A DNA stretch of 64,000 nucleotides. Origin: Saprospira grandis str. Lewin (lineage in GTDB: Bacteria; Bacteroidota; Bacteroidia; Chitinophagales; Saprospiraceae). The notes under the pieces are model-generated. The model worked only from the letters and a program-made list of their open reading frames with translations. It was not told the DNA's origin and did no database searches. Of this stretch, positions 19,749-42,190 are shown piece by piece. Numbering within the stretch: the first letter of the stretch is position 1; each line of letters opens with the position of its first letter. The DNA is taken from positions 1,288,995 through 1,352,994 of the forward strand of contig NC_016940.1 of assembly GCF_000250635.1 (NCBI RefSeq). The letters are read 5' to 3'. A program made the position numbers and the translations under genes.

Positions 19749-20621
19749 CTAAAAAATACTTTGATTCGTGAGTCGAAGGGCAGCACGGAGGGCATTCAGC
19801 ATATTTCCATGCGTTTGAATTTCTTGAATATCTAGGCCAATATCGACAATCGTTTGGGCCACATTGCCAGAAATGCCAGAGAGCATCGCTTGGCAGCCCA
19901 TCAGTTTGGCCGCCTTGCTCATCTTAATCAGGGCGTTGGCCACCTCGCTATCCATAACGGCGATACCGCGGATATCGAGAATAAACACCTTGGCGCTTTT
20001 TTCCGCAATTTCCTCGAGCATAGCGTGCATAACCTGTTGGGCGCGTTCGCTATCTAGAAAGCCCACCAAAGGCAGCAGCAGAATGCCCTCCCAAAGCGGG
20101 GTAATGGGCGTAGACATAGAAGAAAGCGTTTCCTCCTTTTCTCGGAGCAACTCATCTTTGGCCGAGCTATAGCCATCGGTGAGCGTAGAGATGGCGATGC
20201 CCGTAAACTTTCGGTAAGTTTTGAGCAGGCTCAGACTGAGCAGGCCATGTTCTTCGAGTAAATCCTGGACCTCTTGATGATAATAATTGAGGAAAGCCAG
20301 ATAGGCATCGAAGGGGATGCCCACGCTGGCGAAGACCTGTCCAAAAAAGCGTTGGCGTTCGATATACTCATCATCGGCTTGGCCAGAGAGCAAATCATCC
20401 CAAAAAATGTCCTCACTATCTCGGATTGCCTGCAAGACATCCTCGGTATAATAAGTTAGAAAGAAAGGGTGATTTTGCAGCCAATCGTAGAAGCGTTGAT
20501 AGAGTGCATCTTTTTGATCATAAATTTTTTGGCCTGCTTGGGCAAGTTCCTCTAGCTCTTCATCTTGGAGGAAAAAGAGTGCTTGATAGTAGGGCCAATT
20601 TTTTTCGTTAGGATCAATCAT
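19749..20621 (-). CDS. RsbR-like protein: N-terminal sensor (globin-like) domain + C-terminal STAS domain
   Basis: The C-terminus TPITPLWEGILLLPLVGFLDSERAQQVMHAMLEEI...VFILDIRGIAVMDSEVANALIKMSKAAKLMGCQAMLSGISGNVAQTIVDIG is a classic RsbR/RsbS-type STAS. About 170 aa of N-terminal helical domain precede it. Confidence 0.7.
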   Translation of the reverse strand: MIDPNEKNWPYYQALFFLQDEELEELAQAGQKIYDQKDALYQRFYDWLQNHPFFLTYYTEDVLQAIRDSEDIFWDDLLSGQADDEYIERQRFFGQVFASVGIPFDAYLAFLNYYHQEVQDLLEEHGLLSLSLLKTYRKFTGIAISTLTDGYSSAKDELLREKEETLSSMSTPITPLWEGILLLPLVGFLDSERAQQVMHAMLEEIAEKSAKVFILDIRGIAVMDSEVANALIKMSKAAKLMGCQAMLSGISGNVAQTIVDIGLDIQEIQTHGNMLNALRAALRLTNQSIF

Positions 20622-20627
20622 CTGTAC

Positions 20628-21611
20628 TTAATAGTTTTGGATATGCAAGAGGACCAGCGTTTGGTTGAGCAGCATATAGCCGACCTCTCCAAAGGTAAAG
20701 GGTCCTTCATAATTGCCTAGCTGTTCGCCATCTAATTTAAAGTTCAGATAATTCACGATACAGTTGCAGGCTGTAATTGCGGGGGAGTTAGGCATTTCTT
20801 TGCGGAAAGCCTGGGGGCTATAATCTACTGCTTGGGCCAAATGATAGACCTGGTCTACAGAAACGGGGGCATAAAAATAGACTGTATCTTCCTCTACTCG
20901 TTGGATAGTGGTGTTAATCAGGGCCCCAGAATAGTCTGAAATCAGGGGAAGGCTTCCGTCTATGCCCTTTGCCTTACAATAGTGCGCAAAATTTTGTTTT
21001 TCGCCATTGATCAGGGCTTCGGTAGCTTGAAAATCGGTAGATAAGAACTGAATATCGTCGCCTTTGCCTTCTTCGTAGGGGTTATAAATTTCGATTTCGG
21101 CATATTGGCTTTCGGGCAATTCGACATGCATGAGGACCGCCCGATTCTTCATTTTTTCTGCTTTTGGGCCATAATAGGCGGCGGGCAGATGGCTGGGGTC
21201 GGCCTCTAATTCTCGGCCAGTGATCCAGCCTAGAATAGGTTGGTCGTAGAGCGTATCATATTGGCCAATTTCTAGGGCATAAGCCTTATGCACCTCTGAA
21301 AAAGCGGGCAGTGCGATATAGCTAAAGCCATTTTCGGGCCGATCGGCCAGTAGTTGTTCCAGCTCTTGGGCCGAATAGCTTTTAATTTCGGCGTTTAGGG
21401 CCAGATCGCTCAGATTAGAGACAAAAAGGCGGTTAAGATCTTTTTGCGCCCCTTCTTTGCTCATGAAGTAGGGCGTAGTTCCGCCCAGCCATTGGCCAGC
21501 GGGCAGTTGGTCCAGCAAGCCTTGGCTGCCTGCAATCAGCAGCAATTGGCCGGATTCAATAAGTGCTTGAGTTTCTTTTAGGGAGAGCAATTGGTTTTGA
21601 AGCTTAGCCAT
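20628..21611 (-). CDS. FIST-like sensory domain protein (tandem paralog 1)
   Basis: A 327-aa soluble protein. The C-terminus FTFGEVGYMLLNQTLVLLHIQ resembles the FIST_C ending (xGEI...hNQT). The N-terminus LLLIAGSQ...WLGGTTPYFM resembles FIST_N. It is 6 bp upstream of the STAS gene. Confidence 0.5.
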   Translation of the reverse strand: MAKLQNQLLSLKETQALIESGQLLLIAGSQGLLDQLPAGQWLGGTTPYFMSKEGAQKDLNRLFVSNLSDLALNAEIKSYSAQELEQLLADRPENGFSYIALPAFSEVHKAYALEIGQYDTLYDQPILGWITGRELEADPSHLPAAYYGPKAEKMKNRAVLMHVELPESQYAEIEIYNPYEEGKGDDIQFLSTDFQATEALINGEKQNFAHYCKAKGIDGSLPLISDYSGALINTTIQRVEEDTVYFYAPVSVDQVYHLAQAVDYSPQAFRKEMPNSPAITACNCIVNYLNFKLDGEQLGNYEGPFTFGEVGYMLLNQTLVLLHIQNY

Positions 21612-21714
21612 ATCGTTCTGTTATTAAGTTAGGAAATGGCCCATTGTGTTTATTGTTTGGGATAAAGGTAAGAGCTAAGTTCATCAAAAAAATAGTGGGT
21701 TAGTGTAATCTTCT

Positions 21715-22692
21715 TTACTTATCCTGAATATAGAGGAGGACCAGCGTTTGGTTGAGTAAGAGGTAAGCAATTTCGCCAAAGGTAAATAGCCCGCCATAGT
21801 TAGCCAGACGCACTCCATTCAATTGGAAATTGAAATAGATAGAAATGCAATTAAAGGCTGTTTGGGCCTTTTCTTTAGGCATTTTATCTAAGAACGCATT
21901 AGGGCTATAAGTAATTTCCTTGGCCCAATAATAAACTTGGTCGGTAGATACTGGGCCATAAAAATAGACTCGATCCTCTTCAATTCGTTCAATATCAACA
22001 TTGACCAAGGCGCCAGAGTAATTAGCGAGCAGGGGGAGTTGGCCTTTAATCTCATTGGCTCGGCAATAGTGGGCAAAATTTTGTTTTTCGCCATTGATCA
22101 GGACCTCTGCGGCGGAGAAGTCATTTTCTAAGAACTGAATGCGGTCGCCTTGGCCTTGTTCGTAAGGGTTATAAATTTCGATTTCGGCATATTGGCTTTC
22201 GGGCAATTCAATATGCATCATGACGGCCTTATTGCTTAGGCAGCTAGCTGTTGGGCCATGATAAACGGCTGGAAACTGTTCATCCTCGGCCTCTAGGTCT
22301 TTTCCGGTGATCCAGCCTAAAATTGGAGAATCGTAGAGGCTTTCATATTGTCCAATTTCTACGGCATAGGCTTTATGCACCTCAGAAAAAACGGGCATAG
22401 CGATATAGCTAAAGCCATTTTTGGGCCGATCGGCCAGCATTTGCTCCAACTCTTGGGCCGAATAGCTTTTAATTTCGGCAGATTGGGCCAAATTGCTCAA
22501 TCGGCTGACAAAAAGATGCTGCAGATTTTTTTCTGCACCAGCTTCACTCATAAAGTACGGAATCGTTCCCCCTAGCCATTGACCAGCAGGCAACTGATCG
22601 AGTAATTCTTGGCTAGCGGCAATCAGCAAGAGTTCTCCTGCTTCAATGAGGCGGCGGGTTTCTTCTAAAGTTAATATTTGGTTGTTCGGCAT
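21715..22692 (-). CDS. FIST-like sensory domain protein (tandem paralog 2)
   Basis: About 60% identical to paralog 1 (LLLIAASQELLDQLPAGQWLGGTIPYFM...FTFGEIAYLLLNQTLVLLYIQ). Confidence 0.5.
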   Translation of the reverse strand: MPNNQILTLEETRRLIEAGELLLIAASQELLDQLPAGQWLGGTIPYFMSEAGAEKNLQHLFVSRLSNLAQSAEIKSYSAQELEQMLADRPKNGFSYIAMPVFSEVHKAYAVEIGQYESLYDSPILGWITGKDLEAEDEQFPAVYHGPTASCLSNKAVMMHIELPESQYAEIEIYNPYEQGQGDRIQFLENDFSAAEVLINGEKQNFAHYCRANEIKGQLPLLANYSGALVNVDIERIEEDRVYFYGPVSTDQVYYWAKEITYSPNAFLDKMPKEKAQTAFNCISIYFNFQLNGVRLANYGGLFTFGEIAYLLLNQTLVLLYIQDK

Positions 22693-22732
22693 GAGCCATT
22701 TTGTTAGCGGTTAAGATATGTATGGCCAACTA

Positions 22733-23713
22733 CTATTTTTTGATATCTAGAATGACCATCGTTTGGTTCAGGACCAGATAGGCGATTTCGCCAAAAGTGA
22801 AGGGGTAATGGTAGCCTTGAGTATAGTTTTCTTCTCCGCCCAATTGCATAAAGTTAGCTACACAATTGTAGGCGACTAAGGTCGTTTCGGTTTTTGGGGG
22901 CAGTTTAGCCTTAAAAGCCGCTTGTCGGTTTTCTATAGTTTTGGCAAAGCGGTAAATTTGGCTTTGAAAAACTGGAGAAGCAAAACTGACCGCCGTGGCG
23001 GCTTCTTCTGCCTGATAGATAGAGGTATTGAGTTGGGCGCCGCCAAAATCTCCGACCAAGGGGTATTCCATATCAATTTGATGTTCTTGGAGATAGCTCA
23101 AAAAGTTTTGTTTTTCGCCATCAATTAAACAATCCTCTACCTGATAGCCATCTTCTAGGAATTGGATTTTTGGCCCATCGTTTTGTTCATAGATATTCAC
23201 AATAGAGAGCTCCGCATATTGCTCTGCAGCAAGTTGGGCGTGTAGGGCCAAAAGTTGGTCCGTATAGACCGCTCCATCTTGGCCATTCACCACTAGTGGT
23301 TGAGCGACCTCGCCCCAAACAACACCTGTTACCCAACCTAGGGTAGGCACATCAAATAGCTTTGGGTTTTGGCTAATTTGCAAGGCATAATTGGTCTGTA
23401 CTTCCTGAAAAGCGGGCATCAGCAAATAGCTAAAGCCATTTTCTGGACGATCATCCAGCATTTGCTTCAATTCTTGAGCGCCATAGGCCTTAATGCTGAA
23501 ATCTTGAATTTCAGTAGTCAGATCTGTCACAAAAACCTGCTCTCGGTTCAAGGCACCGCCCTCTTCGGTCATAAAGTAGGGAATGCTGCCACCGACCCAG
23601 TTACCTTTGGGTAGGGTTTTCAAAATTGGTCCATCTGCGGCAACAATTAAGGTTCGGCCTTCTGTAATCCATTGGGCACAAATTTCGGGGGAAATCAGTT
23701 GGTTATTTTTCAT
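22733..23713 (-). CDS. FIST-like sensory domain protein (tandem paralog 3, most divergent)
   Basis: Same architecture (LIVAADGPILKTLPKGNWVGGSIPYFM...FTFGEIAYLVLNQTMVILDIKK). Confidence 0.5.
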   Translation of the reverse strand: MKNNQLISPEICAQWITEGRTLIVAADGPILKTLPKGNWVGGSIPYFMTEEGGALNREQVFVTDLTTEIQDFSIKAYGAQELKQMLDDRPENGFSYLLMPAFQEVQTNYALQISQNPKLFDVPTLGWVTGVVWGEVAQPLVVNGQDGAVYTDQLLALHAQLAAEQYAELSIVNIYEQNDGPKIQFLEDGYQVEDCLIDGEKQNFLSYLQEHQIDMEYPLVGDFGGAQLNTSIYQAEEAATAVSFASPVFQSQIYRFAKTIENRQAAFKAKLPPKTETTLVAYNCVANFMQLGGEENYTQGYHYPFTFGEIAYLVLNQTMVILDIKK

Positions 23714-25055: not shown

Positions 25056-25562
25056 ATGAAAATTTACAGTTTTTTTTGGGGCCTTTTGGCCCTTAGTCTT
25101 GTTTCTTGCCAGTCTACCCCAAAATCATCTACAAATGATGAGCTGGCCAGTTTTCCTGAAAAAGAATTTGTCAAAGTAGTAGCCTATGATTATGAAAGCA
25201 TGCAAGGCGACTATATTTTGAATGAAAACGGGGTGCGACACCCTTCTGTTAAGGCTGAAAAAGAACTCACGGAGGAGCAGCAAAAGCTTTTGCTCAGCAC
25301 TTTAAATAGTAAAAACAGTTATGGGGGTTCGGTCACTCGTTGTTTTTATCCTCGTTTGGGCTTTGTTTTCTACAATGCAGCCGATGAGCCTGTGGGCCAA
25401 GTGAGTATTTGTTTTCAGTGTAATCAGCAGGTGGCTGGGCCGCAGATTCCAGCACAGGAGGCCTTATTGGCCGAGGGCCAACCGATTGGTTATAGTCCAT
25501 TGGGCCGAGAGAAGTTGTTGGAGCTTTGCCAAAGTTTAGGCTTTAGCAACTGTAATGAATAA
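25056..25562 (+). CDS. hypothetical lipoprotein
   Basis: Start chosen at MKIYSFFWGLLALSLVSCQ. The track ORF starts at 24981. A terminator hairpin (ggccgttttcc...ggaaaacggcc plus T7) follows at 25581..25617. Confidence 0.55.
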   Translation: MKIYSFFWGLLALSLVSCQSTPKSSTNDELASFPEKEFVKVVAYDYESMQGDYILNENGVRHPSVKAEKELTEEQQKLLLSTLNSKNSYGGSVTRCFYPRLGFVFYNAADEPVGQVSICFQCNQQVAGPQIPAQEALLAEGQPIGYSPLGREKLLELCQSLGFSNCNE

Positions 25563-25638
25563 CGGAATTAAGAAAATAGAAAGGCCGTTTTCCTGAGTGG
25601 AAAACGGCCTTTTTTTGGTCCAATTTTCTGCGTTTTAC

Positions 25639-25795
25639 AGGCGGCAAAGCCGCCGCAAAGGAGCGCAGCGACGCGGCTGAGGGGCTGTAGCAGGGCCGCC
25701 GCAGGCGGCAGACCAAAGCGCTGAAAGCGCTGCAGGGCCGAGCAGACTTGCGAGCTGCGCAATGGCCCGACCCGTAGCGAAGGGGCAGCCCCAAA
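25639..25795 (-). repeat. GC-rich interspersed repeat, copy 11
   Basis: The sequence ggcggcaaagccgccgc...ggctgaggggctgtagcagggccgccgcaggcggcagacc...gggccgagcagacttgcgagctgcgcaatggcccgaccc...ggggcagccccaaaa ends 5 nt from the stop of 25801..27252. Confidence 0.9.
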
Positions 25796-25800: not shown

Positions 25801-27252
25801 CTAATCTACTGGCGTAAGCAGTCCTTCATTATTGGTTTTGATGAGGCAAACCATGGCGTTGGTGGCCACATTCATGGTACCCGTCATGAGATAGCCCTTG
25901 AGTTCTCTGCGGGTGGTACCAGGCACCAACTCGCGGATAGGCATGACCGTTCCGGCTTGGTTACCGGCTAGGGCCTGGCTACCATTATTGACAGAAGCGC
26001 GGCCAAATTGGCGAATTTCGCCATCCCATTCTGGGGTAAGATTGGAGCCCACCTTAGCCATAACGAGTTCATCGCCAAAGTTGGCATCATCGTATTGGTA
26101 GACAGCACTGATGACAAAGCTCGGTTCACTTCCAGAGACATCGGAGGGAACCAAAGCGATACTTCCGGCTAGGAGATCCTCGCTAGTATTGCTAAAGCCG
26201 CCATTTGTTTTACCTAGATATCGGCGTTGAATTTCTCCTACGCCCTCATCGACTTGGAGGAGGAGAAGATCACCTTCATTCACTTCATTTCTAGTGGGGT
26301 CTCTATTTTCGACATGGCTGAGAATTGTAATTCTGGCATTTAGCGAATCGTAGCAAGAGCCGCCGGCCACCAAAAACATATCTTGGCCACCAAAACTTTG
26401 TTGAGAGACCTCGCTACCCGAAGAGGCGCGGAATCGGATCACGAGAATATCGGTAGTAAAATTGGGGTTAGTGGGTGTCCCGTTTTCCTCATCTCGTTTT
26501 TCGGCGGTAGCGGTGACTACATAAGCGCCATTGAGGACCTCCACAGAGGCGGCGCGGTCTTCACCGACAAATCCACGGACAGAGCGCCAGATGATATTGC
26601 CATCTAGGTCTAGGCGCATAAGGAGCACATCTGTTTTATCTAGGGCCTGATAATCTTGGTATTCGGGTTTACCGATATAGACATCGGTTGTTTCTCCGGC
26701 CAAGACAAAACCCCCATCGGGAAGTTCCTTAATATCATAGACAAAGTCCTTATAAATTTCTGAAGAGCCTAGGGTAGATCCATTGAGCAAGACTTTTTCC
26801 CAGACCACATTTCCTTCTAGGTCTAATTTATAGAGCACGATATAAGTGGCATCTAGGGTAGATTGGCCGCCTACCGTCACCACGGTAGTTCGGTTACCGG
26901 CTACGAGGTAGCCAGACTCATCGGAGAGGACCAGCACGCGGTGGCCGGTTTCTTCATAGCCGTTCCCTCCGTCGCCAAAGGTCTTGCTCCATTCCTCATT
27001 ACCCAGAGAATCTGTTTTAACGAGATAGAAGTCATTGTAGCTAGCAGAATTGACAAAAGCGTTAGAAGAGCCAAGGATAATAAAGCCCTTATCGGCTGTT
27101 TCCTTAACATCTTTTCCGATTTGGCTATTTACATGTCCGTAATACTTAACGAAAGCATCTTCTTGATTGGCGGGAGAGATATTCTCTTTTTTGCAAGCGC
27201 TAAGGCCCAGTAGCAGGAGCATACAGCTAGCGAAGAAATACTTATTGATCAT
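25801..27252 (-). CDS. beta-propeller-like lipoprotein (hypothetical)
   Basis: Lipobox LLGLSACKKE. Recurring ~45-aa units (G..LVKTDSLGNEEWSKTFG, LDLEGNVVWEKVL, LDLDGNIIWRSV) suggest a beta-propeller. Confidence 0.6.
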   Translation of the reverse strand: MINKYFFASCMLLLLGLSACKKENISPANQEDAFVKYYGHVNSQIGKDVKETADKGFIILGSSNAFVNSASYNDFYLVKTDSLGNEEWSKTFGDGGNGYEETGHRVLVLSDESGYLVAGNRTTVVTVGGQSTLDATYIVLYKLDLEGNVVWEKVLLNGSTLGSSEIYKDFVYDIKELPDGGFVLAGETTDVYIGKPEYQDYQALDKTDVLLMRLDLDGNIIWRSVRGFVGEDRAASVEVLNGAYVVTATAEKRDEENGTPTNPNFTTDILVIRFRASSGSEVSQQSFGGQDMFLVAGGSCYDSLNARITILSHVENRDPTRNEVNEGDLLLLQVDEGVGEIQRRYLGKTNGGFSNTSEDLLAGSIALVPSDVSGSEPSFVISAVYQYDDANFGDELVMAKVGSNLTPEWDGEIRQFGRASVNNGSQALAGNQAGTVMPIRELVPGTTRRELKGYLMTGTMNVATNAMVCLIKTNNEGLLTPVD

Positions 27253-27275
27253 AGTTTTCTAATTTAGGTGAAAAA

Positions 27276-28670
27276 TTAATTCCCTTTAATATCTGAGGCT
27301 TTATCTTTGATTTCGTCAATTACCTTAGAGCTAGCGCGACCACGGCGAACATCTTCAATGATACCGGGTTGATCTCTTTCGAGTTCGCGAACGAAGCTAT
27401 TGAGTTCTCGTTTTAGTTCGGAGTCTGTAGTTCGTTTAGCGTTTCGTTTTTCCTTCTTGATAATTTTATTGAGTCGGCGATTGATATAAACTTCGTTGTA
27501 CTGTCGTTTTTTTCTGGGTTTGTAGAAAGACTTTTCGAAGCCGATAGTTAGTGAATAATTATCCATACGAAAGTCATTATCTACATGTCCGTATTCGTAG
27601 AGCAATTCGGGATTGCTATAGCGATTTTCTCTATTGACGGAATTCATCAAAAAGCGGTTGTATCGGGCTTCGATAATAACGAAATCGTGTCCTAGGCGAA
27701 TTTTTGCGCCAGCGCCAGCGAGTAGAGAGACATTAAAGCCTTCTCTTAGGGAGAGGCGGTCGGCTTCTCCGGCTTGAGTTTCGGCAGAGAGGCCAGATCC
27801 GGCAATAACGAAGCTACGTTCGCCACCGACTACGGCTCCACCGCCATCAGATTCGCGGGTTGTATTTCTTTGGATATTAACCACACTAGCAGAGAGCAAG
27901 AAATTGGGTGCTCCACCGATATAAGCGTAAGGGATTACCTTTTTGTAGCGTTTGAAATAGTGTTCATAGCGTAGCATCAGGGGGATATCGATCCAGTACT
28001 GTCGTTCATCAAACTGCAGGCTAGAGTATTGCAGTGTATTTTGGGCGGGGTTTTGCAAGCCTGCCGAGAGGAACATAGTATCGATAGCGCGATAACTTCT
28101 GAGGGCAAAATTACCTTCTAGAGCGAGCGTAAAGTCTCTCCAGATAGGCATTTCTACACCGATAGCGCCAGAAAAGCCCAGTACAAATTGGTTATAATTT
28201 TCTGCTCGATAATTGTTGTTATCTACATTATAGGTTTCTAGCGTTTGCAGGCGAGTATTATTGGCGCCAATATTTCCATAAATAGAGATCAGAGGTTTAT
28301 GTCTATACGTTCTAGAGAGATAAATCAGGTCATAAGAATTATTGGGATTTAAAGAATCTGCCTCATAGAGGGGGTTAATTTTGAGGAGTTCTTCAAAGGA
28401 GCGGGTAGCATCATCTAGGTCATTACGGAAGAGGTAGCTTTCGGTCAGTAATTTATAGCCTTCTTCTCTTTTTGCTTTAACGGGAAAAGCTTTCTTATTC
28501 GCTAGGCAATCTCGGATCAGGTCGCCCACCTCTTCTAGCTGCCCTTCTTCATAGGCTCTTTTAGCCTCATCTAAATGGTCATTACAGAGGTCCTCGTCTA
28601 GTGATTGTGCAGATAAGACTTGAGGGCTGAGGGCTAGGGCGACAGCGGCCCAAAGCAATTTTAGTTTCAT
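27276..28670 (-). CDS. outer-membrane beta-barrel protein with N-terminal TPR-like segment (hypothetical)
   Basis: Start chosen at MKLKLLWAAVALALSPQVLSAQ; the track ORF runs to 28709. The middle has alternating amphipathic beta pattern rich in Y/G/N. The C-terminus is charged and coiled-coil. Confidence 0.55.
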   Translation of the reverse strand: MKLKLLWAAVALALSPQVLSAQSLDEDLCNDHLDEAKRAYEEGQLEEVGDLIRDCLANKKAFPVKAKREEGYKLLTESYLFRNDLDDATRSFEELLKINPLYEADSLNPNNSYDLIYLSRTYRHKPLISIYGNIGANNTRLQTLETYNVDNNNYRAENYNQFVLGFSGAIGVEMPIWRDFTLALEGNFALRSYRAIDTMFLSAGLQNPAQNTLQYSSLQFDERQYWIDIPLMLRYEHYFKRYKKVIPYAYIGGAPNFLLSASVVNIQRNTTRESDGGGAVVGGERSFVIAGSGLSAETQAGEADRLSLREGFNVSLLAGAGAKIRLGHDFVIIEARYNRFLMNSVNRENRYSNPELLYEYGHVDNDFRMDNYSLTIGFEKSFYKPRKKRQYNEVYINRRLNKIIKKEKRNAKRTTDSELKRELNSFVRELERDQPGIIEDVRRGRASSKVIDEIKDKASDIKGN

Positions 28671-28822
28671 AATAAAAAGCGAATTAGTAATTATTAAACT
28701 CGAACTCATTTTGGAGACGGCAAGCCTCTGGCTTGGCTAAGGAGAAGATAAAGCCTAAAAAAAGGGGAAAGCTAGCCCGGCTAGCCCTCCCCTGGCTCTA
28801 TCTTTAGAGGTATATTATTGTA

Positions 28823-31800
28823 TTAGTCGCCTTGTGGGTATTCATTACCACAGGTAGAAAGGGGAAGGCGTTCGCCTTCTGCAGTAATAATATACAGGCG
28901 TTGGTTGCGTGGATCTCTTTCGGGGTCATCGGTACCAATATATTTCTTCCATTCTTTATTAGAAAGGTTGCGGCGCACCATAGCGCAGAGTTGGCTAGCG
29001 TAGCGGAACATATCCACCTCGTAGATTTTCACTTCTCCATTAGCGCAGCCGGTAAGGACTTTTTGTCCATCATGGGTAAAGGCCACAGAAAGGACCCAAT
29101 CTTCATGATCTTCTAGGCGAATGGGCTGGAACTTAGGATCTTTGAAGGGGAACTCCTCTTCATTATCATAGTTCTCATAAGCTTGATTCCAGATTTGCCA
29201 AAGTGTAGCTCTTTTATCGAGGCTACCCACCACGAGCATAGTTCCATCATCAGAGAAGCTGAGGTCACTAATTTTGGCGCTATGATAAACGAGGCGTTCG
29301 GGAATATAGCGGTTGCCGTCTTGGTCTAGACCATTTTTGTAGTGATAGATATCAAAGATAAGCAAAGAGCCATCTTGGTAACCTACAGCAACAAATCGGC
29401 CAGTGGGGCTAATAGCTACAGCAGTAGCATTGCGTTTGTTGTAGGGATTTTCTAGTTTAAAATCCTCTTGGCCCGACTTAATATTCCAGATAGAAACATC
29501 AGGAGATCCTCCGGCGCCAGCCACATGTTGTCCATCGGCAGAAACGGCAATAGAAGTCACTCGGTAAGGCGTACGTTCTACAATAGGAGTTACTTCTCCT
29601 TTCATATTGGTATACTTGATACTGCGGTCATCTCCGGCAGAGATTACGGCATTACCCGTAGGCAAGAAAGCGAGGTCCCAAACGCGGCGGCCACGGTGAA
29701 CGTCTACTTTAAGCATGCGTTCTTCTTTGGCCACATCCCAAATTTCCATATAATCTTCATCGCCAGCACGGACCAAGAACTTTCCTTCGGCATTCATATC
29801 CATACAACGATAAACTCGGTTGTTGCGGTTGCGGGTAAGCACCTGTGGAGCGCCTGCTGTTTTTTGTTCCTCTTTGCTATCAAAAACCTGTAGAGGCCAT
29901 TTAAACAGCCAGCCATCAGAACCTGTAGTATAGACTTTTTGGTCAAATTCTCCTTCTGCGGTAGAGACCACAATAGAGCGCATGGCACCAAGGTGAGAGA
30001 GGCCATCAGGAGCTACATTCAAACTATTAAAGTCTGGGTTATCTCCTACCCCTTGCATTTTATCTATAGCCTTATAAAGGGCTTCATAGATATAGGCATC
30101 ATGTTCTTTTCCACCATTTACCCGATTCAGCTCAAAGGCTTCTTTAGCCAAAAGTGCTTCTAGGTCGGGTTCTTCTACTTTCCAAGACTTTACGGCTACA
30201 GACTGGGCCAAAGAAAGGCCTTTTGTCATAATCGCCTTAAGGCGTTCTTCTTGCGCTCTGCGTTCTGACTTCATGGCATCGCGGCGAGCTTGTTCGGCCT
30301 TAAGCTTAGCAATTTCTGCTCTTTGGCGTTCCAATTCTGCCGTATCCAGAGCGATTAGGGCCTTTGAGCGAGCTTGGTTGGCGGCTCTAGACTTCAACTC
30401 AGCAATATCTGAAGAGCGAATCGCCTTTTCGGTAGCCTGACGGGCCAAGAAACTTTCTCTTTGGGCACGATTGGCATTTACCTTGGCCATATAGCGGCTC
30501 TCATTGGCTCTTTGCTTGGCTATTTCTGCCTGATAAGCAGCTAGGCGAGCCTCTTTTTCTTTGCGGCCAGCCACCTGAGCCGATCGGCGGGCACTATCTA
30601 GGGCCACACCGGCCAAGAGCAAAAGAATAAGACAGATGGCGCCAAAGCCCAAAGAAAGATAAGTGATCAGCATACGGGTTTTCCGTTTGCGGTCATCATC
30701 TTCCTTCTTATCTCTAAGTTTTTTATCTGAAGCTTCATGACTTTTCAGTAAAAAGTCAATTGTTTCATCATAAGTAGTATTATATCGAGAAGCCCAAGCC
30801 TTGGTAGGCGCTAGGCGGTCGGGATGCTCCTCATCATAGGTATGGGGTTCATACCATTTGAGGCCCAAACTCAATTCGGGTTCTACCCAAAGGGCGCCTT
30901 TTCCTTCAAAGTAAAGGGCGGCGGCAGTAGATAGGCGAGTATAGGTTTCGGCTGCCTCATGCTCTTCTTCTGCCCAATGCGCCAAACGGTCCCAATAAGA
31001 AATTAAGCTTTCATGCGTAATACTAATTACGGTGTCTAGCTCCAAATCATCCCGATTTGGGGGCGCCTGCAAAAAGCGGCGGTCCGAACGAGAGAAAGCC
31101 ACAATAACCGGAGCCAAACTCTCTATACTTTGATCGGTCAACTTGCAAAGTTCGCCTACAGTAGCCACCCTACGGCTAGCCGAACCATCGGCATTGCGCT
31201 CAGAAAGCGCCCGAAACATTCGTTGACAAGTAACTTTTTGCTCTTCTGTTTTGAGCTTATTATAGGCCTCCTCGGCATGCACAGAAAGCGCCTCCTTGAT
31301 GGTCCCTACATTCTCATAATGCTTAATCCCCAAAGGAAGGCCAGGATCAGAATCTACCTCCACCCAATTGTCCCAAACGCGCATCATCAAATGCTGCAAA
31401 CGAGGCAAATCGTCAAAGTCTTCTCCAATATCAGCAATCATCCTGCTCACTAGGTCTGGAGCAATGCTTGCCCCCACCGCCTTAACCGGCATAATCATCA
31501 CCTTCTTGAGCTCTTCTACCTTCATTTTCGGAATCAGAAACTGCCCATCGTTAATCGCCTCGGGCAAGCCTCTAAAATCCGTACAACGCCCAATATAATC
31601 CGAGCGCATAGTCAATACAATATAAATAGGCGCTTCGCGCTGCCTAGATGCATTGAGCAGTAAATTGACAAAGGTAGCCGCATCTTCCTGAGCGGCTGAA
31701 GAAGTTTTAGCAAAGGCAAAAATCTCTTCAAATTGGTCAATGACCACCATCAAATTGGCTCGCTCTACATCCGCATCTTTATAAGCATCGACTAAACCCA

Positions 31801-32182
31801 AACTTCCTCGGCGCAGACTTTTCTCTACAATAGCCGGATAGTTAGGGTCCATTTTACTGTCAGGGTGCAAGACCCCTCTAGAGGCCAACTGACGACTCAA
31901 GTTTCCAATCGGATTGTTGCCAGGCTGACAAACCGCAATTCGCCAGTTTTGCCCCGCCTGCCCCGCAAAACCATCTTTTAGTTTTGGGACCAAGGCCGCA
32001 CGAACTAGCGAGGACTTACCTCCGCCTGCTCCTCCTACCAATGCCAAAAAACGATTGCCACGAATCTTACGTAACAACTCATCGAGCTGCTTATTCCTTC
32101 CGAAAAAAAGCTCTCTCTCTTTGGCCTCATAAGGGCGCAGTCCAGGATAAGGTTCCTTAGTTAAAATTTCAAAGGATGCCAT
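28823..32182 (-). CDS. STAND-class P-loop NTPase fused via a transmembrane helix to coiled-coil and 7-bladed WD40 beta-propeller
   Basis: The N-terminus PYPGLRPYEAKERELFFGRNKQLDELLRKIRGNRFLALVGGAGGGKSSLVRAAL holds the Walker A, with Walker B at LMVVIDQFEE. One TM helix is present (MLITYLSLGFGAICLILLLLAGVAL). About 150 aa of charged coiled-coil follow. WD40 repeats include SIWNIKSGQ, LLIFDIYH and ATLWQIWN. Confidence 0.75.
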   Translation of the reverse strand: MASFEILTKEPYPGLRPYEAKERELFFGRNKQLDELLRKIRGNRFLALVGGAGGGKSSLVRAALVPKLKDGFAGQAGQNWRIAVCQPGNNPIGNLSRQLASRGVLHPDSKMDPNYPAIVEKSLRRGSLGLVDAYKDADVERANLMVVIDQFEEIFAFAKTSSAAQEDAATFVNLLLNASRQREAPIYIVLTMRSDYIGRCTDFRGLPEAINDGQFLIPKMKVEELKKVMIMPVKAVGASIAPDLVSRMIADIGEDFDDLPRLQHLMMRVWDNWVEVDSDPGLPLGIKHYENVGTIKEALSVHAEEAYNKLKTEEQKVTCQRMFRALSERNADGSASRRVATVGELCKLTDQSIESLAPVIVAFSRSDRRFLQAPPNRDDLELDTVISITHESLISYWDRLAHWAEEEHEAAETYTRLSTAAALYFEGKGALWVEPELSLGLKWYEPHTYDEEHPDRLAPTKAWASRYNTTYDETIDFLLKSHEASDKKLRDKKEDDDRKRKTRMLITYLSLGFGAICLILLLLAGVALDSARRSAQVAGRKEKEARLAAYQAEIAKQRANESRYMAKVNANRAQRESFLARQATEKAIRSSDIAELKSRAANQARSKALIALDTAELERQRAEIAKLKAEQARRDAMKSERRAQEERLKAIMTKGLSLAQSVAVKSWKVEEPDLEALLAKEAFELNRVNGGKEHDAYIYEALYKAIDKMQGVGDNPDFNSLNVAPDGLSHLGAMRSIVVSTAEGEFDQKVYTTGSDGWLFKWPLQVFDSKEEQKTAGAPQVLTRNRNNRVYRCMDMNAEGKFLVRAGDEDYMEIWDVAKEERMLKVDVHRGRRVWDLAFLPTGNAVISAGDDRSIKYTNMKGEVTPIVERTPYRVTSIAVSADGQHVAGAGGSPDVSIWNIKSGQEDFKLENPYNKRNATAVAISPTGRFVAVGYQDGSLLIFDIYHYKNGLDQDGNRYIPERLVYHSAKISDLSFSDDGTMLVVGSLDKRATLWQIWNQAYENYDNEEEFPFKDPKFQPIRLEDHEDWVLSVAFTHDGQKVLTGCANGEVKIYEVDMFRYASQLCAMVRRNLSNKEWKKYIGTDDPERDPRNQRLYIITAEGERLPLSTCGNEYPQGD

Positions 32183-34007: not shown

Positions 34008-34799
34008 TTATTCATCGGCATCATCGTCTAAATTCATGGCTGTAGATTGGCCCTTAGGCATCATGCTCGTATCATCCCAGAGCTTAGATACCCAAAAGCG
34101 AAGTACCGCCTGTTTCTTTTCTTCTTTATCCAGATAACCATAATTTCCAGCCGTTTTTGCTTCTAGTCGGAAATTAGTCTCTGAGCCCGTCCAACGGAAG
34201 CTGATTTTCCGCCAAAGCAAACCATAACTCGCCTTTACATGCTTGACCACCCCTTGGCCATAAGTAGCCGTGGCAATTGCATAAGTAAGGGCATATTTAG
34301 CTCTTTTCTTCCGGCCAGCAGCATGGGCAATAATTTCAAAAGCCTGAACGCCCTCCAAATCTGAAACGATAGGGTGCCAGCGGCCATCGGCGGGGATTTC
34401 TCCTTGAATAAAAGTGCCGACTCGACCATTTGCTCCAAGCATGCCATTCACCTCTAGCTTAAAGTTGGGCAAGCTGGTCCCAATACCTACATTACCTCCC
34501 TTCCGCAAGAAAAGAAGGGTTTCATTTTCGCCATCATTAAAGCTGAGCCCTTCACTATGTGGAGTGGGATTCATCGAGATGCTAAAAGAGGCCTGAGGGT
34601 CTCGGATGCTTTCATAGAAGCTCATCAAGCGCTTATTTGGGCCTTGAGTGGCCAACATAAGGCCCTCAGTCGAACTTTGAGAGAAACCGTCATCTACCTT
34701 ATTGACGGTAGAGTCGATAAGGTCAGCAAAGTTCACTTCTGTGGGGACCATGCCCCTTTTGAACAGATTTTTGAGTGTGCTACGCGTGAGTAAAGCCAT
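34008..34799 (-). CDS. tail-fibre-like protein (putative CIS fibre)
   Basis: The motif GGNVGIGTSLPNFKLEVNGMLGANG resembles the xVGIGTxxPxxKLxV fibre/collar repeat of phage tail fibres. It is co-oriented with and directly downstream of the CIS baseplate gene. The C-terminus is acidic. Confidence 0.4.
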   Translation of the reverse strand: MALLTRSTLKNLFKRGMVPTEVNFADLIDSTVNKVDDGFSQSSTEGLMLATQGPNKRLMSFYESIRDPQASFSISMNPTPHSEGLSFNDGENETLLFLRKGGNVGIGTSLPNFKLEVNGMLGANGRVGTFIQGEIPADGRWHPIVSDLEGVQAFEIIAHAAGRKKRAKYALTYAIATATYGQGVVKHVKASYGLLWRKISFRWTGSETNFRLEAKTAGNYGYLDKEEKKQAVLRFWVSKLWDDTSMMPKGQSTAMNLDDDADE

Positions 34800-34939
34800 T
34801 GAGTTGGATACTTTAACTTAAATGGAAAGGCGGGTGAATGCCATCAAATTTAAAAAATTGTTTGGAAAAGGCGCAGTCAAAACGATTTTATAATTTAGAT
34901 TTTCTTAATAACGCCTTTATTTATTGTTTTTTAGGGCTT

Positions 34940-35111
34940 GGCGAGGCGGCGCAGCCGCCTGCGAGCGCAGCGAGCCATGGCCCAGCGCTGCGGAGTGGGT
35001 GGCCGAAGGCCAGACCGAAGCGCTGCAAGCGCTGAAGGGCCGAGCGAATAGCGAGCCCCGCAGCATAGCGGCGGCCGCCCCGCTATAAAGGGCGGCCGCG
35101 GGCCCCAAAAA
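34940..35111 (-). repeat. GC-rich interspersed repeat, copy 13
   Basis: The sequence ggcgaggcggcgcagccgcc...gggtggccgaaggccagacc...gggccgagcgaatagcgagcccc...ggccccaaaaaa lies between the baseplate gene and the fibre-like gene. Confidence 0.8.
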
Positions 35112-35188
35112 ATGGACCTTGTAGCACTAAAAAAGGCCCAAAAGTGCGTGGACTTCTGGGCCTAATCGGTTATGTTTTATGCGATTGT

Positions 35189-38100
35189 TTAATCGTCTAG
35201 TTCACGCTCTTCGGTCATTACAAAGTCGCCATCGAGCATCATATTGTCTAGGCCAGCTTTGGCAGGAGACTGGAAAGCCACCTCGTCGAGGAGATAAAGT
35301 GGGTTTTTCTCGAAAGGAATGAGGACCGACCAAGGCGTGGTGGCCTTGAGTAAGGGCGAAGAAGAGGTATCGATAGCGGTATCGCCTACATCGAAACCTT
35401 CGCCACTGGGGAAAACCTGAACGGCAGAAAACTTAGTGACAAAATCGACATACTCTCTTTTTTCGATAAAGCTAAGGAGAACATCCTTGGCGATAGTACC
35501 GCCTAATTCAAGTTCTCTTTGGCCGCCATACATCCAGGGGCAGACAAAGTCCATAATATCCTTATTCAACTTTTTGAGGAAGGTACCGTTGTTCATGCCT
35601 TTTTGGAAGCGCAGACCGCCGGCTACTTTCACTCTTTCGTAGATAGGGTTACGGAGTTTGATCTCGACAAAGGGCGAAGCTAGTGGGATGAGGTAATCGC
35701 GGATAGCTTCTAGGGTAGCGTTATTCACCATGGGGAGGCGACCTTGGTGAGAAGCTTTAATTCTGGGTACGACCACGAGGACCACCTGTCCTTTTTCTAC
35801 AAAGGCTTCATTGCCGATATGCGTTACGCATTTCACTTGGAAAATATCGGGAAACTGGTCGAGGACCAGGCGTTCATAATCCCAGGCAGAGACGGCTCTA
35901 CCTTTATGGCGGAGGCGTTCGCTACTGCGGGTATAGAACTCTTTTTTATTTTCGCCGGGTCGGCCTTCAAAAGAGCCAAAAGGTTGTTGGACCGATCGGA
36001 TTTGGACCAATGGGCTGGCCAAATTTTTAATTTTATTGGCGGCCAATTTTTCTTCCAAGTGTTTCACCTCCTCTTCGGGGTTTCCGGCCCAGGTAGCCGA
36101 AATGGCTTGGGTAGAGAGGTGTAAAACGGTAGGCATACGGCTAGCGTCGCCACGGAGAGAGGCGCGCAGCCAGAACTTTCCTTTATCGAAGATGGTATTA
36201 TTATCTGAAATATCTCTGGGGATATCGAAAGTGATAATTCCGGAGTTATTAAAGAAATTGGTGGTATCGTTTAGGATTTGGGTTTGCGAAAACTCCTTCC
36301 ATTCGTCATTAACGAGGAAGCTCCAAACGATTTCGGCCTGTTTGGCTTCGCTACTACGGCCCTTCATCATAGAGAAATAGTCTTGATTCTCTTTGAGTTC
36401 GAAGTAGATAGAGAGTGTAGCGGGTGGGTTAAAATCTTTGATCCCAAGGAAGAGGTAAGCATCTTCATCGTAGGCGGGCAGCAAAGTGGGTTTAATTGGG
36501 CGGCCTTGAGAGAAGTTGCGCATCACACCGAAGGGGTGGATATGGAACAGCTCTTCGACCACACCGCCAGAGCTATTTACGGTACCGATAGACATGATAT
36601 TGACTTGAGCTGTAGCGGTATAGTCAATGCTCATATTTCGGATAACGGGAGTAAAAGGTTGGTTGGGGAGTTTCTTTTTCTCCTTAGTTTTGGGGTCTGC
36701 ATTATGGGCAGCCACATCGGCGTAGAGATTGGGAAACTCATCGTGGGCGAAAGCAGAGGGCGGGTTAGTTAATTCCATGCGGAAATAGCCGGTTTGCGTT
36801 TCGCTGGTATAGGTATCAATCTGTTTGAGATTGGCCTGTGGTTCTAGGCCAAAAAGTTTGAGATCGATATTATCTAGGCAAGTAGCATTACTAATGCCAT
36901 GCACATTATCCTCATCTTGTTCGAAGAGGAAATACTCCTTGACATTATTTTTATTTTCTGGGAAGAACTCCCCTTCTCGGAGGGCCGACAATTTGATTCG
37001 GTAATCTTCATTTCGGATACCGAGGCCATACTCTCGATAATAGCCACGGAGGCCTTTTGTATTATCGGGTAGATTATGCCAATTGATATTGATTTTGAGG
37101 TTAGTCAGCTCCTTTTTGAAGAGCTCAGTTTTTCCGATAAGGAGATAAGAGCCTAGCTTAGGCGTGGGGCCAAAAGCTTGGAAAGGGATACTGCCTTCTA
37201 GTTGGCCGTATTCATTACTTAGGTTTAGGCGTTTGATTCCTTTGACCTCAACATCAATGTTAATGCGTTCTAGGCTTAGCTCTTTAAGGAAAGAGTAAGA
37301 GTAGGTTACATTTTCATTTTGGTGAAGGACCTTCATCACGGGAAGGCTAGTATCGAAATCGGGGCCTAGGACATCGGCATTATAGCCCACGATAGCGGGG
37401 GCATTAGCAGATACGGTAGCGAGCAGGCTAAACTCGGGGATATTCCAGTTTTCTGGGGGAAGGAGTTCGCAGCTTTTGGCTTCGATCCAGCCTTCTTCTC
37501 CAGAGAGGACTAATTTCAGGCTATTTTTAAAGACCTTAGAGAAGGCATCTTCTTTAGATAGGCCTTGATTTCGGCTAATATCCTTAATCAAAAGATTTAG
37601 GGTATACATAGAAGACTTATCGAATCGCATGCGCAACTTGATACTACGGTGGCCTTCTTCCATTTCGAGAATAGGCGCAGCCATAGCCCAGCCTACTTCG
37701 GCATAGACCATTTGGCGTTCATCGGAAGCTTTTTCGAGTAATTCTTCTCCGAAGGCGGGCCATTCCTCTTCATTATTGATAAAGCGTTTGCCTAGGCCAT
37801 CTCTAGAGTTGGCGACAGGGGCGGCATACATATTTGTGATAAGGCGATAAGAGCTCCCGATACCGATTTTTGGGTTTTTGCTCACAAAAAGCGTCTTAAC
37901 TGCATCCACTTTAGCTTGGTTCAGTTCGATACCATAATCGGTTTTATAGCGGATGGGTTTACCATCTTCATCGACGCCAGCGTCTAGGAGAGTGCCAGCG
38001 GGGAGGAAAAAGCTATCAATATGTTTGGCCAGGTTAAAATAGACATTTACCTGATCGGGTTGCAAGCCTCTTTCCTGCATTTTAAGCACATCGTAATAAT

Positions 38101-38959: not shown

Positions 38960-39025
38960 GCTAAGGTGCGCTTAAGAGATGGTTATTGTTGTTCTGATAG
39001 TGATAGTAGTGGGGGTCTAAAGGAA

Positions 39026-39442
39026 CTAGAGTTCGGTACCTTCTGCGAGATAGAAGGGATAGACCATATTGTTACGAGCATTTACGCCCTTAATTTCATA
39101 GACCACATTGACATTCACTCGGCCACGGAGCTGCTCGCTTTCGTCTACATCTACAGAGATGAGGCGGATACGGGGTTCGTGATAAAGGATAGCCGTAGTA
39201 ATGAGATCTTGAATTCGGATTCGGGTAGCGTTATTGATACTTTGAAAAGCTTGGCTATGGATATCGCAACCATAGCTAGGGTTCATGATTCGTTCGCCGG
39301 GGAGAGTAGAGAGGAGAATATTAAGGGATTCCTTAATATCTTCTTCATCTTGAGACATAACAATTCCGCGGGTAGAGTCGCTAAAGCGGGGCGGGAAGCT
39401 CCAGCCTGAGCCTAAAAATGATTTTTGGATATCGTCTGACAT
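39026..39442 (-). CDS. GPW/gp25-family baseplate wedge protein
   Basis: FLGSGWSFPPRF...ESLNILLSTLPGERIMNPSYGCDIH...IRLISVDV matches the gp25/TssE lysozyme-like fold signature. Confidence 0.85.
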   Translation of the reverse strand: MSDDIQKSFLGSGWSFPPRFSDSTRGIVMSQDEEDIKESLNILLSTLPGERIMNPSYGCDIHSQAFQSINNATRIRIQDLITTAILYHEPRIRLISVDVDESEQLRGRVNVNVVYEIKGVNARNNMVYPFYLAEGTEL

Positions 39443-39512
39443 GCTTAAAAATTTCTTATCGTCTAAAAATTGGGATCAACTATTTGTCTTAAGTGCGGAC
39501 TTGGGTGGTCAT

Positions 39513-39634
39513 TGGCCTAGCGCTGCGGAAGGGTGGCCCGAAGGGCCAGACCGAAGCCCGCAGGGCTGAAGGGCCGAGCAGGCTTGCGAGCCCTGCAGCA
39601 TAGCGCCGCAGCTTTGCTGCGGAGGCCCCAAAAA
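39513..39634 (-). repeat. GC-rich interspersed repeat, copy 14 (inside CIS operon)
   Basis: The sequence ttggcctagcgctgcggaagggtggcccgaagggccagacc...gggccgagcaggcttgcgagccc...ggaggccccaaaaa ends at the base before the PAAR stop codon. Confidence 0.85.
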
Positions 39635-39925
39635 CTACCCAATCAATACAGTAGGAGCACCAGCAACTACAGCACCGCCATGGCCACAAGAGTCGCCAAT
39701 ACGGGCAGCGGGTTTCCCCTCAATCATGACCGTTCCAGAGCCAGAGGCAATCGAATCGCCTGCGCAGGCACAGACGGCAGAATCGCCGAGTCGGGCGGCT
39801 GGAATTCCGGTAACCATGACGGTACCGGCACCGCTAACAATGGGTCCACCTACATGAGGTGAAGGACCGGGGCAAACGGCGGGGCAAACGTGCATATCGC
39901 CAATTCGAGCAGAGGGCATTCCCAT
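39635..39925 (-). CDS. PAAR-repeat spike-tip protein
   Basis: Three PAAR motifs are present: SARIGD, AARLGD and AARIGD. The protein is Gly-rich and 96 aa long. Confidence 0.85.
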   Translation of the reverse strand: MGMPSARIGDMHVCPAVCPGPSPHVGGPIVSGAGTVMVTGIPAARLGDSAVCACAGDSIASGSGTVMIEGKPAARIGDSCGHGGAVVAGAPTVLIG

Positions 39926-39946
39926 AACCTATTGATTTTAATACTT

Positions 39947-41791: not shown

Positions 41792-41827
41792 TTTTCTTTA
41801 TTTATCTTCTAGTTAATTGAGTCAATT

Positions 41828-42016: not shown

Positions 42017-42052
42017 AAGCTCTATATTTTTTTGCTGTTTTTAAGCAGGTTT

Positions 42053-42180
42053 TTTTGGGGCCTGCGGGCTTCGCCCGCCGCTATGTTGCAGGGCTCGCAA
42101 GCCTGCTCGGCCCTTCGCAAAAGCTTCGCTTTTGCTCGGTCTGGCCCTGCGGGCCACCCTTCCACAGCGCTAGGCCAAAA
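42053..42180 (+). repeat. GC-rich interspersed repeat, copy 15 (inside CIS operon)
   Basis: The sequence tttttttggggcctgcgggcttcgcccgccgc...gggctcgcaagcctgctcggccc...ggtctggccctgcgggccacc matches the family. Confidence 0.8.
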
Positions 42181-42190
42181 ACGGCTTCGC

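Follow-up and report, generated by a model that had tools for sequence, protein, structure and literature searches.

A STAND NTPase, an outer-membrane barrel and a lipoprotein propeller in Saprospira grandis: a candidate trans-envelope sensing module

What does an NLR-like nucleotide switch do beside two envelope proteins? The question is raised by three minus-strand genes that follow one another in a 64-kb stretch of the Saprospira grandis str. Lewin genome (contig NC_016940.1; this whole stretch is called the window below). Their products are a STAND NTPase that also carries a WD40 propeller (the STAND protein, 28823-32182), a predicted outer-membrane beta-barrel protein (P2, 27276-28709) and a predicted lipoprotein beta-propeller (P3, 25801-27252). 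A preliminary description of the window had proposed that this triad is a trans-envelope signalling or sensing apparatus. The conservation of a transmembrane helix, the recurrence of the gene order and the replacement of one barrel family by another in relatives all support that proposal, and we consider that the triad is probably an outside-in trans-envelope sensing module built around a STAND nucleotide switch.

A STAND protein with a conserved membrane helix

The STAND protein, which is 100% identical to a database entry from Saprospira grandis named 'WD40 repeat domain-containing protein', is laid out as follows.

28823-32182, minus strand: STAND gene, 1119 aa, encoding an nSTAND1 NTPase, a transmembrane helix, a helical stalk and WD40 repeats (open reading frame, translation, Pfam)
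30911-32152, minus strand: nSTAND1 NTPase domain, residues 11-424, predicted cytoplasmic (PF20703, E=9e-88)
32009-32035, minus strand: Walker A motif GGAGGGKSS, residues 50-58, intact
31724-31747, minus strand: Walker B motif VVIDQFEE, residues 146-153, intact
30599-30673, minus strand: predicted single transmembrane helix, residues 504-528 (Kyte-Doolittle 19-aa mean 2.55)
30113-30592, minus strand: Ala/Glu/Lys/Arg/Gln-rich helical stalk, residues 531-690, predicted to span the periplasm (composition)
28973-29851, minus strand: WD40 beta-propeller, about residues 778-1070, predicted periplasmic (Pfam WD40, 3.5e-27, and many propeller families)

The preliminary description had seen in this protein a STAND P-loop NTPase with almost no N-terminal effector and had asked whether it belongs to the NACHT, AP-ATPase or nSTAND clade. 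Pfam answers with nSTAND1, far above threshold (295.9 bits against a cut-off of 27.1, for a model of 379 positions), and both Walker motifs are present with the sequences first read. Because the nSTAND1 match already begins at residue 11, no room is left for an N-terminal effector. The nucleotide-binding site is strictly kept: in an alignment of 17 diverse homologues (alignment A1), G50, G53, G55, K56, S57 and S58 of Walker A and D149, Q150, F151 and E153 of Walker B are invariant. A sequence search of the PDB with the NTPase profile returned generic P-loop matches only and no solved nSTAND1 structure. At the other end of the protein, PF00400 matches over four stretches (94 bits against a cut-off of 27), and the best PDB sequence matches of the WD40 region are the Nostoc WD40 protein 2ymu (1.3e-55) and the WD40 domain of PkwA.

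Is the hydrophobic stretch between the two modules a membrane helix? A transmembrane helix is found at the matching position in 119 of the 120 best homologues (38-100% identity), the sole exception being a 500-aa fragment. We also scanned 1.84 billion cluster representatives (50% identity), of which 8,121 matched at E<=1e-30; the helix is present in 132 of the 136 new representatives within the top 150, and in 3 more of these 136 it falls slightly below the hydrophobicity threshold used. Across 197 family sequences the hydrophobic core measures 22 +/- 2 aa, and its flanks are asymmetric, with a mean of 6.5 Lys plus Arg in the 15 residues on the N-terminal side versus 3.4 on the C-terminal side. 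The N-terminal flank is the more positive one in 173 of these sequences and the less positive one in 7.

By the positive-inside rule, and because the NTPase requires cytoplasmic nucleotide, this bias would place the NTPase inside and the stalk and WD40 propeller outside. On hydrophobicity, charge bias and genomic context, we infer with good support that the STAND protein is a bitopic N-in/C-out protein of the inner membrane, whose WD40 domain is predicted to be periplasmic. The earlier suggestion of a single transmembrane helix thus holds across hundreds of homologues, and of the two modules the WD40 propeller is very probably the one outside. The domain that follows the helix in relatives is WD40, TPR or Ank+DUF1080.

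Between helix and propeller, a coiled coil of about 150 aa rich in Ala, Arg and Glu had been noticed; residues 531-690 are indeed 61% Ala, Glu, Lys, Arg and Gln, with 1 Pro and 3 Gly, and the corresponding segment of the family is likewise poor in Pro, Gly and aromatic residues. Its length is similar beside two of the barrel types encoded next door (see below), with a median of 145 aa (112-160) in loci with a P2-like barrel and of 149 aa (91-175) in loci with a TonB-dependent-receptor-like barrel. If fully helical, the S. grandis stalk of ~160 residues would span about 21-24 nm, and the stalk lengths of the family would correspond, as helix, to roughly 17-24 nm, which approximates the width of the Gram-negative periplasm.

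Two envelope partners and their exchange among relatives

The two genes that follow, and the transcription signals around them, are these.

27276-28709, minus strand: P2 gene, outer-membrane beta-barrel protein (PF13568 OMP_b-brl_2, AlphaFold2, Foldseek)
28335-28604, minus strand: P2 N-terminal helical (TPR-like) Cys-pair domain, residues about 36-125 of the reading frame, predicted periplasmic docking head (AlphaFold2 helices, hidden Markov model)
27525-28289, minus strand: P2 beta-barrel, model residues 128-382 (AlphaFold2, Foldseek)
27282-27494, minus strand: P2 C-terminal charged helical extension, model residues 393-463 (AlphaFold2)
25801-27252, minus strand: P3 gene, lipoprotein beta-propeller, 483 aa (lipobox L-S-A-C20, AlphaFold2)
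28763-28793, minus strand: terminator-like hairpin between the STAND gene and P2 (14-bp stem, 8 GC pairs, T7 tail)
25580-25612, minus strand: terminator-like hairpin downstream of P3, within an 83-aa open reading frame (sequence scan)

The P2 reading frame lies 113 bp downstream of the STAND gene on the same strand, as first described; P3 begins 23 bp after P2, also on the same strand. A signal peptide begins at Met14 of the P2 reading frame, and this residue (at 28670) is probably the true start, which gives 464 aa as in the NCBI homologue. P2 matches OMP_b-brl_2 above threshold (39 bits, cut-off 27). Its AlphaFold2 model (41 homologues, mean local confidence pLDDT 84) contains 4-5 helices, a beta-barrel and 3 charged C-terminal helices, in agreement with the barrel with a TPR head that had been read from the sequence, and by Foldseek the barrel resembles OmpA, NspA, Ail, OmpW and OmpT (E 1e-5 to 4e-7). 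NCBIfam yields for the head only a sub-threshold TssQ-like match. The C-terminal extension, which holds conserved motifs (alignment A2), is confined to proteins of the Saprospiraceae clade, where P2 is 433-497 aa long, versus 340-381 aa in Cytophagales.

P3 had been described as a lipoprotein beta-propeller, and both parts of that name stand, as do the other points of the preliminary description that were checked against the sequence. Its N-terminus, MINKYFFASCMLLLLGLSAC20, fits the lipobox pattern [LVI][ASTVI][GAS]C, alignment A3 retains the Cys in its consensus, and the UniRef name of P3 is 'Lipoprotein'. The AlphaFold2 model is an all-beta propeller (pLDDT 87; predicted template-modelling score, pTM, 0.88), and among solved structures the CylK propeller matches it best (E=1.6e-15). 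P3 is not a member of the SBBP/LipL53-type family (NF047494), which it matches with 32.6 bits against a cut-off of 400 and over residues 57-154 only; with the LipL53-type propeller lipoproteins it has only the fold class, a CylK-like propeller, in common. The hairpin at 25580-25612 probably terminates a P2-P3 transcript. The Arg/Ala/Ser/Cys-rich 83-aa reading frame directly after P3 that contains it (25543-25794, minus strand) appears to be non-coding. A sigma-70 promoter scan of the locus stayed at the level of shuffled sequence, the sigma-70 consensus not being applicable to Bacteroidota promoters.

Do these three genes belong together? We searched species-representative genomes with a profile that covers the NTPase and the transmembrane helix, and retrieved 80 loci; at least 587 of 600 candidate stretches were confirmed, from Bacteroidota, Acidobacteriota, Cyanobacteria and Planctomycetota, and 10 additional loci of closer relatives were examined. 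Neighbouring genes were called as the longest open reading frames of >=90 aa, so their lengths are approximate. The order STAND-P2-P3 recurs across Saprospiraceae and Cytophagales. A P2-like barrel is the next gene in 26 distinct loci, at a STAND identity of 36-66%, and a P3-like lipoprotein then follows in 22 of the 26. Because the gene order is repeated in so many distinct loci at this level of divergence, the arrangement is far beyond chance.

Aureispira anguillae and four other contigs of the Saprospiraceae clade carry homologues of both P2 and P3 after the STAND gene, and the flanks of these five loci (L001, L085, L087, L088, L089) are all unrelated. The triad also occurs in about 20 Cytophagales genomes, among them Ekhidna, Fulvivirga, Marinoscillum, Cyclobacteriaceae, Flammeovirgaceae and Roseivirgaceae. 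Judging from full-length proteins, 45-66% identity and intact motifs, it is evidently under constraint in the Saprospiraceae clade. The three genes thus form a module, as the preliminary description had supposed, syntenic in many genomes while the flanks differ.

The triad is often followed by a gene for a very large secreted protein (L085:16820-23360, L088:11414-15599, L089:12958-17258; in Cytophagales, for example, L066:13353-17600). In the Saprospiraceae clade these proteins carry the Por_Secre_tail of the type IX secretion system (T9SS), reach 3458 aa and contain PKD, SprB or LTD domains; those of Cytophagales have a signal peptide and about 1200-1460 aa and are not homologous to the former. 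No such gene follows P3 in the window.

Beyond these lineages, the slot after the STAND gene is filled by other barrels. The next gene encodes an outer-membrane barrel in 47 of 75 complete relatives: OMP_b-brl_2 in 26, a TonB-dependent-receptor-like protein in 13 and a MetA-like barrel in 8. The TonB-dependent-receptor-like partners (850-920 aa, Plug plus barrel) are found in Chitinophagaceae, Sphingobacteriales and some other lineages, and the MetA-like barrels (350-400 aa) in Acidobacteriota, where the STAND protein has TPR rather than WD40 repeats. By phmmer, the STAND C-terminus is WD40 in 26/26 P2-type loci and non-WD40 in 8/8 MetA-type loci; this single-sequence typing is too insensitive for the Chitinophagaceae type, which precomputed Pfam matches call WD40.

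The P2-like and TonB-like barrels share an N-terminal domain of ~100 residues right after the signal peptide, which in the TonB-like partners stands ahead of the plug. A hidden Markov model of this head matches every P2-like and TonB-receptor-like barrel that adjoins a STAND homologue (E 1e-21 to 1e-49) and, outside those barrels, a single reading frame of the sampled loci (194 aa, L067, E=3e-14); no Pfam family matches the domain. Its two cysteines (C42 and C68 in P2) are each kept in 35-36 of 42 sequences and in 12 of 13 TonB-like ones, consistent with a disulfide in the periplasm. We rejected the idea that the head is common to all three barrel types. That three families of outer-membrane barrel interchange in one slot, two of them with one dedicated N-terminal domain, strengthens the trans-envelope reading.

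Upstream, the most frequent partner is a gene for a soluble protein of ~500 aa with TIR_2 and DUF4062 domains, which directly precedes the STAND gene in 63 of the 79 relatives with an upstream neighbour, mostly with gaps of <70 nt or with overlap. TIR_2 is N-terminal and DUF4062 lies mid-protein, and there is neither a transmembrane helix nor a signal peptide (L042:6412-7926, L019:6474-7982, L013:6481-7956). By eye, the C-terminus holds a third TIR-like segment with the motif VYL..D...D. DUF4062 is an experimentally demonstrated TIR-like NADase that acts in phage defence and also occurs in human TEP1 (bioRxiv 10.64898/2026.05.01.722283). The gene is absent from all sampled loci of the Saprospiraceae clade and from three Roseivirgaceae/Fulvivirga loci.

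Cytophagales operons contain a further upstream gene, for a protein with 12 transmembrane helices, HEAT repeats and a C-terminal cyclic-nucleotide (cNMP)-binding domain (L042:3086-6340); the latter resembles the cNMP-binding domains of Pycsar effectors. Those of Chitinophagaceae encode a protein with 2 transmembrane helices, an NAD-binding-type TrkA_N domain and RyR (L019:4512-6467), and a HEAT-like protein with 12 transmembrane helices (L019:13760-16276). The HEAT/cNMP and TrkA_N/RyR proteins are possible targets of a nucleotide signal. None of these extra proteins (TIR+DUF4062, 12-helix, TrkA_N/RyR or secreted) has a homologue in the window; because they are missing, the S. grandis triad appears to be a reduced form of the system.

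Residues 14-29 of the STAND protein (32096-32143), between an invariant GLR and FFGR, correspond to a segment that is strongly acidic in most relatives (for example SFEEDEDVL), with a mean net charge of about -2.7 both in loci that have a TIR gene upstream and in loci that do not. In the Saprospiraceae clade the mean is -1.6 and the segment contains Lys/Arg (PYEAKEREL in S. grandis). This segment could be a docking site for a partner, a candidate that reflects correlation only. We also considered P0299, a homologue of 1138 aa from the cluster scan, as a TIR-STAND fusion and rejected this, as it consists of two complete nSTAND1-plus-transmembrane modules in tandem.

An outside-in sensor and its alternatives

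How could such a triad work? To the observed domain content, conserved membrane helix, charge bias, synteny, shared barrel head and stalk length, the mechanism that we infer adds a topology, physical contacts, a direction of signalling and a trigger. The nSTAND1 NTPase would reside in the cytoplasm, with the one transmembrane helix fixing the STAND protein in the inner membrane. Its ~160-residue helix would bridge the periplasm and hold the WD40 propeller beneath the outer membrane, in contact with the periplasmic Cys-pair head of P2 and with the P3 propeller. An event at the surface or in the outer membrane (a ligand, contact, damage or phage adsorption) may alter this contact, and the signal would pass through the transmembrane helix and flip the NTPase to an active, probably oligomeric state. 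The output in most related systems would be the cytoplasmic TIR+DUF4062 protein encoded upstream, a TIR-like NADase.

The module may serve immunity, the sensing of contact or of prey, or surveillance of the envelope. It is conceivable, if on balance doubtful, that the whole family consists of NLR-like receptors that watch the cell surface: the outer-membrane barrel (small, TonB-receptor-like or MetA-like) would be a guarded entry or bait, the STAND protein would switch on the TIR/DUF4062 NADase in most lineages, and the Saprospira variant would have been rewired with loss of the NADase output.

Several observations weigh against the outside-in sensor. In S. grandis itself, a strong terminator-like hairpin divides the STAND gene from P2, so that the triad possibly makes up two transcription units, and the gap between the two genes is 113-152 bp, versus 2-25 bp in Cytophagales. 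The TIR+DUF4062 partner is absent at the S. grandis locus and throughout the window. Among relatives, the MetA-like barrels are without the shared head domain, in two clade members (L086, L090) no barrel accompanies the STAND gene, and 26 of the 75 complete relatives have no recognised adjoining barrel.

Could the module be an antiphage or abortive-infection system, as the preliminary description had allowed? This would be a special case of the outside-in sensor, in which the barrel is a phage receptor under guard or serving as a decoy, the STAND protein signals adsorption or a breach of the envelope, and the TIR-like NADase kills or arrests the cell. TonB-dependent receptors are classic receptors of phages. 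DUF4062 and TIR are proven defence NADases, their gene lies directly upstream in most relatives, and nSTAND1 was defined in predicted counter-invader systems (PMC8195603). This support is indirect, and there is no TIR gene at the Saprospiraceae-clade loci. PADLOC-DB v2.0.0 gives no match for the triad proteins, and for the partners in relatives only noise from P-loop and cNMP domains. Flanks are common only within groups of 5-6 related loci, and we saw no defence genes in them. The operon type, moreover, tracks taxonomy (Cytophagales, Chitinophagaceae, Acidobacteriota) and looks more vertical than a typical mobile defence island would. We regard an antiphage role as possible but not the probable one.

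Alternatively, force or control could run from the inside out. NTP binding or hydrolysis by the STAND protein would then, through a TolA-like stalk, gate, tether or assemble the barrel/lipoprotein pair or a T9SS surface protein, as housekeeping comparable to Tol-Pal or TonB. The conserved stalk length suits a periplasmic ruler, a transmembrane helix followed by a long Ala/Lys/Glu-rich helix and a globular C-terminal domain resembles TolA, and partners like TonB-dependent receptors normally require energy input. In L085, L088 and L089 the triad is succeeded by very large T9SS-sorted surface proteins and in Cytophagales by secreted proteins of ~1200-1460 aa, and the system persists without TIR in the Saprospiraceae clade. 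To our knowledge, however, all characterised STAND NTPases are switches and not motors; the C-terminal repeats are the sensor end in known STANDs, and the TIR-like effector that most relatives encode upstream suits an output rather than an input. A Tol-like, inside-out role is possible, yet it suits STAND biology less well than an outside-in sensor, and we think it unlikely.

Might the triad serve the contractile injection system (CIS) encoded nearby? The CIS cluster (34008-47765, minus strand) comprises a Pvc16-like gene (47205-47765), a sheath gene (44217-45710), three gp19-type tube paralogues (42191-44104), a VgrG-like spike gene (39947-41791), a gene for a 1256-aa protein matched by phrog_33902 only (35189-38959) and a 263-aa reading frame without a match. 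It is probably the S. grandis type VI secretion system (T6SS)-iv-like system discussed for ixotrophy. Its last minus-strand reading frames end 1.8-3 kb upstream of the STAND gene, close to the 3 kb first reported, and on the same strand; the VgrG-like gene is 7.8 kb off.

This proximity, together with the trans-envelope complex seen by tomography in the Aureispira T6SS (bioRxiv 10.1101/2024.01.29.577165), speaks for the triad as an accessory or regulator of the CIS, for instance as part of a trans-envelope anchor. That ixotrophy study contains no mention of WD40 or NTPase, and among the listed matches to 'STAND' in it there is the word 'standard' alone. Against such a role, a gene for pyruvate-dehydrogenase E1 intervenes on the opposite strand, and the system is widespread in sampled lineages without CIS genes nearby. 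In Aureispira anguillae and the four other triad-bearing clade members, the 7-10 kb around the triad are free of CIS genes, and on these five loci we rejected a conserved CIS linkage. Because the linkage is not conserved in relatives, the proximity looks coincidental, and an accessory role is very improbable.

It is hardly credible that an ordinary STAND-WD40 protein of the cytoplasm merely happens to be encoded next to two envelope genes unrelated to it, its hydrophobic stretch being no membrane helix: WD40 STANDs are normally cytosolic and a hairpin separates the STAND gene from P2, but the position, length and charge asymmetry of the helix are conserved over hundreds of diverged sequences, and synteny with outer-membrane barrels, gene displacement included, extends across phyla.

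Other genes of the window include three tandem DUF6976 paralogues (325-327 aa each, E about 1e-114 to 1e-120), after which comes a protoglobin-STAS protein (19749-23713, minus strand), and three tandem reading frames of exactly 180 aa each (8753-10790, minus strand: 8753-9295, 9462-10004, 10248-10790). The region 49989-58403 encodes two GH18 (chitinase-like) proteins side by side (628-639 aa), together with a SprB-repeat protein of 895 aa that carries a T9SS C-terminal sorting domain.

Known systems and significance

The outside-in sensor that we favour resembles several known systems in part. The counter-invader STANDs in which nSTAND1 was described (Kaur, Iyer, Burroughs and Aravind 2021, PMC8195603) have the same NTPase family followed by C-terminal repeat sensors (WD40/TPR). 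The members described have effector or adaptor domains at the N-terminus (bDLD3, EAD10, TIR and others), unlike the S. grandis protein, in which no domain precedes the NTPase. A transmembrane helix, a stalk of periplasm length and obligatory outer-membrane barrel neighbours are not found in the passages that term searches of this literature retrieved. Avs, bNACHT, Swarozyc, Vulcan, Vesta and PsAvs2 likewise follow a tripartite logic of effector, NTPase and sensor, and the operons of relatives supply a TIR+DUF4062 protein of the same NADase fold. Avs-type systems, however, are soluble proteins to which the effector is fused and which recognise phage proteins inside the cytoplasm, whereas the sensor of the STAND protein lies beyond a transmembrane helix, and the effector is a separate gene, which is absent in Saprospiraceae.

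The TonB-dependent transducers (FecA-FecR-FecI; PMC11637429, PMC12036975) also combine a barrel bearing an extra N-terminal periplasmic domain before the plug with a single-pass inner-membrane partner that has its C-terminus in the periplasm and acts in the cytoplasm through its N-terminus. The barrel of the Chitinophagaceae-type relatives is truly TonB-receptor-like, whereas that of S. grandis is small, OmpA/OmpW-like and without a plug. Where the transducers have a secretin/TonB N-terminal signalling domain, the head of the relatives' receptor-like partner is a distinct Cys-pair helical module, Pfam matching only Plug and the TonB-receptor barrel in these proteins. The STAND NTPase takes the place of the anti-sigma factor and its extracytoplasmic-function sigma factor; the neighbours scanned gave no Pfam match to a sigma or anti-sigma family.

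Single-pass Ser/Thr kinases of Planctomycetota (PMC11032199) and PkwA (PDB 5yzv) also join a cytoplasmic nucleotide-using domain, through one transmembrane helix, to extracytoplasmic WD40, TPR or DUF1080 domains; here, by contrast, the cytoplasmic module is a STAND NTPase and a dedicated outer-membrane partner is encoded next to it. In the eukaryotic DUF4062-NACHT-WD40 proteins (TEP1, NWD1/2) one finds the TIR-like DUF4062, STAND NTPase and WD40 that two adjacent genes jointly carry in relatives. Unlike in those proteins, the domains are split over two genes, the NTPase is nSTAND1 rather than NACHT, and a transmembrane helix stands between NTPase and WD40. TolA has an N-terminal membrane anchor, a long Ala/Lys/Glu-rich helix that spans the periplasm and a C-terminal domain that touches outer-membrane components; no large domain of TolA lies in the cytoplasm, and TolQR and the proton-motive force, rather than an NTPase, power it. 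The layout of the STAND protein is like that of TolA, its stalk being like TolA domain II, and we detected no sequence homology between the two.

Membrane-proximal STANDs and periplasmic sensor domains are mentioned in passing in PMC7159879 and PMC10907252. Full-text literature searches, which covered papers outside subscription-only journals, did not find the architecture, the outer-membrane partners or the shared head domain. The triad thus apparently belongs to a large family of envelope-spanning STAND systems that has so far gone undescribed.

What would such a family mean? The characterised bacterial STAND or NLR-like immune receptors that we know of sense their triggers in the cytoplasm. 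Here the sensor domain is predicted to be periplasmic, carried by a stalk about as long as the periplasm is wide, and it is paired with an outer-membrane protein of its own. The Cys-pair helical domain, small and so far unannotated, marks out the outer-membrane partners and is a concrete candidate for the interface. If the topology and the contacts hold, the family would represent a new route by which diderm bacteria carry information across both membranes, and its TIR/DUF4062-bearing majority would couple surface events to NAD+ chemistry. If the barrel-bearing systems are indeed surface receptors, immunity or contact sensing would set in ahead of any entry into the cell. Saprospira is a gliding predator, for which the triad offers a candidate pathway of sensing at the cell surface.

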